Of a DNA stretch of 64,000 bases, positions 39,008-40,300 are shown piece after piece; position 1 is the first letter of the stretch, and every line of letters starts with the position of its first letter. Under the pieces are notes generated by a model. The model worked only from the letters and a program-made list of their open reading frames with translations. It was not told the DNA's origin and did no database searches. Where the stretch lies: positions 1,381,370-1,445,369 of the forward strand of contig CAVROI010000001.1 in NCBI GenBank assembly GCA_963722825.1. Direction: 5' to 3'. A program made the position numbers and the translations under genes. The DNA is from an uncultured Gemmatimonadales bacterium (lineage in GTDB: Bacteria > Gemmatimonadota > Gemmatimonadetes > Gemmatimonadales > GWC2-71-9).

Positions 39008-39029
39008 TGGTTACGTGCAGTCTTGTATC

Positions 39030-39200
39030 TCTAGTTCCGGTCTTTCGCAGTAGCTTCTGATTCCGGTGGTAGCCCGATCCGTCTAGGGGCCGCGAGCCCG
39101 TTCGTTAGCCGGGGCGCCACCTGATAGTGATCGCCAAGAGCCCGAACAGTTGTCCGGGGATCCACCCCGCATCCGCAAGGCCGGGCCACGCCGATCGTTC
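39030..39200 (+). ncRNA. Putative IS110 bridge RNA (target- and donor-binding loops)
   Basis: Two stem/internal-loop units. Loop 1 carries TCCGTCT (39078-84) and TCGTTAG (39102-08); loop 2 carries ACAGTTG (39146-52) and GCAAG. Ends approximate. Confidence 0.8.
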
Positions 39201-39215
39201 TCCCTAGGGGGCCGT

Positions 39216-40148
39216 ATGGAGTGCTTCGTCGGCATCGATGTGTCGAAGGCCACCCTCGACATCGCCAGTTTGCCCGATGCCGAGACCTGGACGGTCACGA
39301 ACGACGACGGGGGGCTGGCCGAGCTGCTGCCCCGGCTGGTGACGCTCCGCCCTACCCTGATCGTGCTGGAAGCGACCGGCGGCTTCGAGTCCGCCGCGGT
39401 CGCCGCTCTCGCCAAGCTCGGCTTGCCCGTCGTGGTCGTCAATCCACGCCAGGTCCGCGACTTCGCCAAGGCCATGGGACGCCTCGCCAAGACCGACGCC
39501 ATCGATGCGCTCACCCTCGCGCTGTTTGGTGAGCGCGTCCGGCCCGCGGTGCGGCCCCTGCCGGACGAGGCCGCCCAGCTCCTCGATGCCCTGCTCACCC
39601 GGCGACGGCAGCTGGTGGAGATGCTCACCGCCGAGAAGAACCGCCTCGGCTTTGCCCGCGGACCGGTCAAGCGGGACATCACCACCCACATCCGCTGGCT
39701 GGAGAAACGCCTGACCGATGTCGACGGTGACCTCGCCACCGCCATCGCCGCGAGTCCCCTCTACCGAGCACAGGACGATCTGCTCCGCAGCGTCCCCGGA
39801 GTCGGGCGGGTCACCGCGCTCACCCTGCTGGGCAAGCTGCCCGAACTCGGTCACCTCTCCCGCCGCGAGATCGCCGCGTTGGTCGGCGTCGCCCCGCTCA
39901 ATCACGACAGCGGTCAGATGCGCGGCAAACGGTTCGTCTGGGGCGGGCGGGCTCCGGTGCGCGCCGTGCTGTACATGGCCACCCTCGTCGGTCTCAAGCA
40001 CAACCCGCGGCTCCGGGTGTTCTACGAACGGCTCTGCGCCGGCGGCAAGGTGTTCAAGGTCGCCATCACTGCCTGTATGCGAAAGCTGCTCACCATCCTC
40101 AACGCGATGGTCCGGCACCAGCGCCGGTGGGACCCACAGATCGCTTGA
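39216..40148 (+). CDS. IS110 DEDD recombinase
   Basis: GIDVSK, LEATGG, KTDAIDA, SVPGVG, DSG. Confidence 0.95.
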
Positions 40149-40163
40149 CTTTCAAGACAGTTG

Positions 40164-40300
40164 CTAACGACTGGCGCATCAGCTGCAAGCGACTCGCTCG
40201 CGCATGCAACAAGCTTACATTCCGCCGCCCACCATCGGCGAGTTGCCTTTGCTAGGAATCCGGTTCGGGCGCGCTTGTCGGCTGCATGGGCATGTTAGGC
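40164..40300 (-). repeat. attC site (R' abutting IS110)
   Basis: CTAACGACTGG...GTTAGGC. Confidence 0.85.

Follow-up and report, generated by a model that had tools for sequence, protein, structure and literature searches.

Bridge recombinases of the IS110 group are represented by IS621 and ISCro4 (IS622) (PMC11208160; PMC11208158; PDB 8wt6, 9t56). In elements of the IS621 type the left end is longer than the right end and carries the bridge RNA (PMC11208160, the supplement of which gives the left-end start and loop layout of IS621), handshake dinucleotides have been defined and the cut falls just after the CT core (PMC11208158). RNA-guided targeting of integron attC sites has been published for the IS1111 elements ISKpn4, ISPst6 and ISPa25 (PMC11187229), and IS1111-attC elements insert near the 5' (R'') end of attC (PMC3001079); an IS110 of plasmid pME-1a, located at the ISPa21 position, is named in PMC7232449. 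Two further systems bear comparison, the group IIC-attC introns, retroelements that part a gene from its attC and may carry outward promoters (PMC3001079), and ISPpu10, an IS110 element that targets REP sequences with a 5' stem-loop (10.64898/2026.03.19.712850).

Here we describe an element in a 64,000-nt stretch of DNA (hereafter the window) which we read, with a probability of roughly 0.85, as an IS110 element of the IS621 branch residing in the R' box of attC, whose predicted left-end bridge RNA reads CTAACGA and whose circle would be joined to the site at CT. Like IS621 and ISCro4 it has a long left end, a short right end, a CT core and two guide loops in the same order, together with an ACAGT.. 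/ CT-TGTAT donor, a discontinuous right donor guide, handshake dinucleotides, and a short recombinase (310 aa) with DEDD residues and a catalytic serine. It differs from IS621 in its target, an attC R' box as opposed to the IS621 site ATCAGGCCTAC, in the span of its target guides (five non-core bases on the left and five on the right, compared with seven and two, extendable, in IS621) and in that the left guide is loosely obeyed.

Element and recombinase

The element and its parts are as follows.

39022..40165, plus strand: IS110 element copy 1, both CT cores counted
45875..47018, plus strand: IS110 element copy 2, the same sequence as copy 1 at an offset of 6853
39022..39215, plus strand: left non-coding end of 194 nt with the predicted bridge RNA inside, opening with the core and right donor CT-TGTAT, as the IS621 left end also does
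39216..40148, plus strand: DEDD recombinase ORF, 310 aa
40145..40165, plus strand: right end with TTGACT as candidate -35, left donor ACAGTTG (40157-63) and core CT

An earlier sequence-only reading of the window had proposed two identical elements bounded by CT whose excision rebuilds the ends of two attC sites. Its coordinates and the identity hold: both copies are 1144 nt long, are 100% identical and have CT at start and end, and removing them recovers GTGCAGT-CT-AACGA and TGTCCGT-CT-AACGA. No other full copy exists in the 4.54-Mb genome. The empty allele of copy 1 is represented by a contig of public run X8 in which the 1142 nt between positions 39021 and 40164 are absent and the two letters shared at the joint are a single CT (one contig, the short side of which is 30 nt). 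The circle junction was not found among the assembled contigs of 8 public runs, and no public sequencing run contained half of the searched words. A plasmid collection held no close relative of the element (best identity <60%).

Recombinase residues D8, E52, D94, D97 and S232 align with D11, E60, D102, D105 and S241 of IS621. The protein contains the Pfam domains DEDD_Tnp_IS110 (PF01548) and Transposase_20 (PF02371), scores above the cut-off of NCBIfam NF033542, and matches only ISCro4 (E 3.5e-38) and IS621 (E 4.2e-34) in the PDB. The right end extends just 17 nt past the stop codon, compared with 194 nt on the left, as expected of the IS621 type, and the predicted loops lie in the left end. 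The candidate -35 TTGACT overlaps the stop codon, and in the computed circle junction it would face TATCTC, a poor match to a -10 hexamer, across 17 nt (TTGACT-N17-TATCTC). A promoter scan of 38800-40400 detected no sigma-70-like promoter around the integrated element; weak expression has been reported for integrated IS621 (PMC13626964).

Predicted bridge RNA and its guides

Two predicted loops of the left end contain the four guides.

39065..39121, plus strand: predicted target-binding loop, an outer stem with an inner hairpin at 39087-39099
39078..39084, plus strand: left target guide TCCGT-CT, matching the site and covarying in relatives
39102..39110, plus strand: right target guide TCGTTAG, reading CTAACGA, and after it handshake CC, with site match and covariation of the guide
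39140..39186, plus strand: predicted donor-binding loop of IS621-like layout
39146-52, plus strand: left donor guide ACAGTTG, inside the donor-binding loop
39171-72 and 39175-79, plus strand: discontinuous right donor guide, AT and GCAAG, with handshake GC at 39180-81

All guide coordinates given in the sequence-only reading (TCCGTCT 39078-84, TCGTTAG 39102-08, ACAGTTG 39146-52 and GCAAG 39175-79) were borne out, and guide order, spacing, ends and catalytic residues support the IS621-type architecture with a CT core that it had put forward. Two guides required refinement. The right donor guide, described as GCAAG, takes the discontinuous AT..GCAAG form as in IS621, and the left target guide, correctly described as exact for copy 2 and partial for copy 1, spans five non-core bases compared with the seven of IS621. 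At these bases it matches the site in 5/5 positions for copy 2 and 3/5 for copy 1; the right target guide matches in 5/5 at both copies alike.

The predicted two-loop structure draws its support from alignment. RNAalifold applied to 19 related left ends recovered the described target loop and left both of its guides unpaired, whereas the donor loop came out partly closed. Across related left ends the full two-loop structure pairs in 97.3% of cells versus 35-51% with slid partners; changes on both sides of a stem are scarce (3/29 pairs). The single left-end sequence gave no such support, folding less stably than shuffled sequences (z +2.33; 200/200 shuffles as good), and an Rfam scan of the 64-kb window returned 0 matches.

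Extrapolating from IS621, we propose that the element is excised to a circle, that its left end is expressed as the predicted bridge RNA, and that the right target guide would read the conserved CTAACGA of the R' box. Handshake dinucleotides would then pair, and the recombinase would act at the CT core, exchanging strands after CT and linking circle and target site. The right guide would set specificity and the left guide would act as a loose check, since the latter lies mostly on cassette-specific DNA outside attC.

The target is the R' box of integron attC

Both copies lie within an integron cassette array.

23241..63926, minus strand: integron cassette array, 49 attC matches on this contig
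40162..40300, minus strand: attC entered by copy 1, R' now TGCTAAC on the bottom (plus) strand, hairpin otherwise intact
47015..47143, minus strand: attC entered by copy 2, R box with 4/7 pairs filled and 6/7 empty

The genome contains 75 attC matches, 49 of them on this contig, and an integron integrase on contig C3 (C3:2006191-2007400; TIGR02249 above cut-off) on the same strand as the cassettes. This is an inverted arrangement, with an attI-like entry site ~220-260 nt past the integrase end. Contigs C3 and C1 probably meet end to end inside the array. Across 30 sites 95.1% of the cells of the attC hairpin are paired and 7 pairs show changes on both sides; the sites have the boxes RYYYAAC / GTTRRRY and two extrahelical bases, C16 and T23, 6 bp apart on the plus-strand 3' arm opposite AAC. 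The usual base at position 16 is G, but this array has C there.

The extrahelical-base rule for attC strand and box naming (PMC5027507) makes the plus strand the bottom strand and the box entered R'. The polarity of the integrase-side entry site and the minus-strand cassette genes agree with this assignment, so the earlier proposal of attC R' as the target was right. As the integrase crossover falls between A and C of AAC (PMC5027507) and IS621 is cut just after CT, the element would enter two bases outside the IntI crossover. It runs antisense to the cassette genes and precedes the next of them by ~57-70 nt. The genome has 48 occurrences of the 9-mer G[TC]CTAACGA, 38 of them within attC R' boxes, and 94 of the shorter CTAACGA, 45 of them within attC. 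Copies outside attC-like sequence would have spoken against such a target; both full copies lie in attC and two decayed relatives on contig C3 also point there, one having its right end on attC and the other consisting of a left end whose right guide is the same.

Several other features of the array were observed. A block at window positions 36050-38750 with several plus-strand ORFs and no attC match breaks the array, and the cassette on the left side of copy 1 terminates in an R'' box belonging to a truncated attC. IS30 and IS481-like transposases (window 40347-41351 and 47149-48273), each single-copy, begin just past R'' of the same two attC sites that bear the IS110 copies, and a decayed IS110 on contig C3 is adjoined by an IS30 end fragment.

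Guides and targets covary among relatives

Loci were gathered in 151 genomes of the family and through two scans of collections, giving at least 150 elements with a donor-loop anchor. Of these, 108 were kept, after removal of 28 without flank, 7 without a parsed guide and 7 duplicates, and they comprise 65 distinct guide pairs among the matches listed (locus L120, from genome G153 marked unpublished, contributes one row to the guide tables, tree and alignment). Guide-target covariation, which the sequence-only reading had named as a check, is present for both guides across these relatives. The right guide agrees with its target in 4.54/5 bases compared with 1.60 when shuffled, and the left guide in 4.11/5 compared with 2.01, the better of two left-guide registers being scored in observed and shuffled data alike (65 guide pairs listed; 0/5000 shuffles reached the observed value in either case, although kinship among the relatives, which are not independent, means that these tests overstate the effect). 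The first handshake base of the donor loop pairs with target position 7 in 62/65 of the listed guide pairs. Covariation of the donor guides is limited because the donor is nearly invariant, the types found being ACAGTTG, ACGGTTG and ACAGTCG.

In a tree of 129 transposases (FastTree, midpoint root) all 30 CTAAC-reading transposases among the matches listed fall into one 35-row clade (SH-like 99), in which the other five rows carry changed guides. Its hosts are mostly Gemmatimonadota, and the CTAAC-reading guide extends to transposases ~62% identical. Within this clade the outer two bases of the right guide track the target (1.76/2 versus 0.98; 0/20000; 21 guide pairs) and the outer left-guide bases do so weakly (1.56/3 versus 1.15; 231/20000; 18 pairs). 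Three clade members have been retargeted, L130 to CTATTGC tandem repeats, L017 to CTCGCTT and L018 to a CTGAGCG palindrome. In L126/L234 and L244 (genome G154) and in L013, the left flank is the element's own left-guide region, which fits insertion into the bridge-RNA sequence of another copy by one-arm matching.

Placement of relatives was assessed with an attC covariance model built from this array only. Of 21 foreign elements that are CTAAC-guided and have a flank of 160 nt or more, 12 have a match exactly at the right junction; 100 more distant loci gave 2 matches, 0 of them at a junction. The nine CTAAC-guided relatives without a match at the junction, L120 among them, comprise two that are attC-like by fold or partner box, three that are attI-like and four unexplained. 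The covariance model was preferred over two other approaches, a free-fold test (12/21 versus 5/62) that missed known sites such as copy 2, and an arm-alignment z-score (5/23 versus 4/79 at z 3, 0 versus 3 at z 4).

A target-blind search for right ends found 22, from five genomes picked as known carriers and three more from 101 genus genomes. Outside genome G154, 14/18 of these ends lie at attC: 3/3 in this genome, 5/5 in G314 (a same-genus genome with a transposase 97% identical), 3/3 in G135, 2/3 in G151, 1/1 in G349 and 0/3 in three short contigs. The guide of the G154 element reads CTAGGGT, and its copies are found at CTAGGGT (3) or CTAGTAT (1) and at no CTAAC site (0/4), despite attC sites and two integrases in that genome; one copy has a weak attC model match (10.7 bits). 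The G154 element, which is nested among the relatives, is a natural guide swap.

An attI-like profile was derived from 15 integrase-adjacent entry sites and set against a background of 594 genomic CTAAC sites. It placed 4/11 non-attC targets, and 0/14 attC targets, in about the top 1% of the 594 sites. Right junctions with attI-like sequence belong to L009, L119/L233, L048, L049 and L211, the guides of L048 and L049 reading CTAACTA. No integrase was found beside four attI-like insertions, two of them with 1.5-2.5 kb of flank, and for this reason we suggest only tentatively that a few relatives aim at attI entry sites.

The loose fit of the left guide invites a different explanation, namely that target choice requires a foldable attC hairpin besides guide pairing, which would account for the tolerated left-guide mismatches. 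In CTAAC-guided elements the left guide does fit worse (3.42/5, n=26, against 4.28 for all others, n=81), a stem-loop gate has been reported for ISPpu10 at REP (10.64898/2026.03.19.712850), and relatives of the element, several of them at palindromes, aim at repeats other than attC under the same rules. The poorer left match would, however, also follow from a position of those bases on cassette-specific DNA. Moreover, some CTAAC-guided copies lie at sites in which no hairpin was found, in this genome the 9-base motif by itself already gives ~80% specificity for attC, the ISPpu10 stem lies 5' of its target as opposed to the attC hairpin, which is 3' here, and recombination with one arm matched suffices for IS621 (10.64898/2026.08.31.748434). 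We therefore regard a hairpin requirement as unlikely, though it is the strongest of the alternatives; by analogy, loose left matching would fit either one-arm recombination as in IS621 or a hairpin contribution as in ISPpu10.

attC after insertion and possible carriage by cassettes

Insertion alters just two outer bases of R'. At copy 1 the R-box pairs decrease from 7/7 in the empty site to 5/7 in the filled one and the predicted attC fold is unchanged (-26.3 filled versus -26.1 kcal/mol empty); at copy 2 the lowest-energy fold is non-canonical, empty or filled alike. As the AAC triplet, the L box and the extrahelical bases survive insertion, the filled attC probably still recombines. With its hairpin whole, the site would allow the element to ride inside the next cassette, where it could be moved by the integron integrase.

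Such carriage might be taken further, to the view that the copies were placed mainly as passengers on integrase-moved cassettes and not by new guided insertions. Relative to the crossover, the element does sit on the side of the downstream cassette, and the cassette of copy 2 keeps 5/7 R-box pairs. Against this, the left flanks of the two identical copies differ, the cassette junction of copy 1 is known without the element, and among 40 full insertions with both flanks 0/780 pairs share a cassette flank, left flank included, that would place an element-bearing cassette beside another attC. Placement mainly by carriage is accordingly improbable, and we favour guided insertion by an IS621-type element. 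That the guide matches arose by chance, with protein or local DNA structure selecting attC, is barely credible: the matches are 7 nt each and the single-sequence fold is not significant, but four guides and the handshake bases occur in IS621 order and spacing, and targets shift with guides both family-wide and within the clade.

Relationship to other attC specialists and origin of the aim

The element resembles the IS1111-attC group (ISPa21, ISPst6, ISKpn4 and ISPa25) in having a DEDD recombinase, a fixed insertion point in attC and an antisense orientation to cassette genes, and, through its predicted bridge RNA, in being RNA-guided like the seekRNA elements of that group. IS1111-attC elements possess long subterminal inverted repeats and encode their guide RNA downstream of the gene, whereas the predicted RNA lies upstream here. 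The 17 nt after the stop codon hold no non-coding RNA region of the IS1111-attC kind, and no subterminal inverted repeats of 7-17 bp were found in the terminal 40 nt, where the longest exact inverted match is 5 nt and offset. The pME-1a IS110 at the ISPa21 position has 13-bp subterminal repeats and a long downstream end, and its transposase is 24% identical to the recombinase described here (pairwise E 0.001; one IS1111-attC member compared). In pME-1a, ISPa21 splits attC between L'' and R'', parting R'' from the rest; by contrast, entry here is at the opposite attC end (R') and leaves the hairpin whole. The low identity, the other end structure and the other insertion point agree with the earlier proposal of an origin apart from the IS1111-attC group.

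With group IIC-attC introns the element shares the habit of a selfish attC specialist in bottom-strand orientation (PMC3001079), but no sigma-70-like promoter comparable to their outward promoters was found around it. Its likeness to ISPpu10 consists in an IS110 acting on a repeated palindrome under a strict right guide and a permissive left guide (10.64898/2026.03.19.712850).

The same earlier reading had the element independently programmed to the attC family of its own host, and this part did not stand, the guide being clade-wide. As the CTAAC-reading guide is common to 30 transposases of one clade, the aim at attC is an old inherited trait of that clade, with the outer two guide bases tuned later. 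A stronger version, in which an old clade has specialised on integrons unbroken, led by the right guide, which would make every cassette suitable, and carried by the integrase as part of the next cassette, with some members shifted to attI, is conceivable, but we would not bet on it.

No IS110 with a left-end bridge RNA and attC R' as its target was described in the text reached by full-text literature searches or in the accessible portions of PMC11616780, PMC9229058, PMC4889954 and 10.64898/2026.08.14.744561; a prior report may sit in ISfinder, Tetu and Holmes 2008, Post and Hall 2009, or supplements. Supplementary Data 2 of Durrant (PMC11208160) includes CT-centred CTAACG targets without comment, and the target sites of L210 and L223 are identical to its entries target_seq2989 and target_seq2990, so this lineage is already in published data, unlabelled.

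Implications for integrons and bridge recombinases

Because the predicted guide RNA spells out the insertion spot, the element likely represents a second lineage that is RNA-guided and targets integrons; it would leave usable a site that the known lineage splits. The mechanism and the target class are known; what is new, and well supported, is a second lineage and a different, probably non-disruptive point of insertion. Two IS110 branches thus reach the same host repeat with guide RNAs placed differently and from opposite ends of the site, the known branch splitting attC and the IS621-type branch being predicted to spare it. Whether insertions of this kind freeze or preserve cassette shuffling has been little tested (PMC11616780), and the element provides a clean test case for the two outcomes. 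The clade is also relevant to the specificity rules of bridge-recombinase editing, as it offers natural swaps of the guide and a target loop naturally dominated by the right guide.
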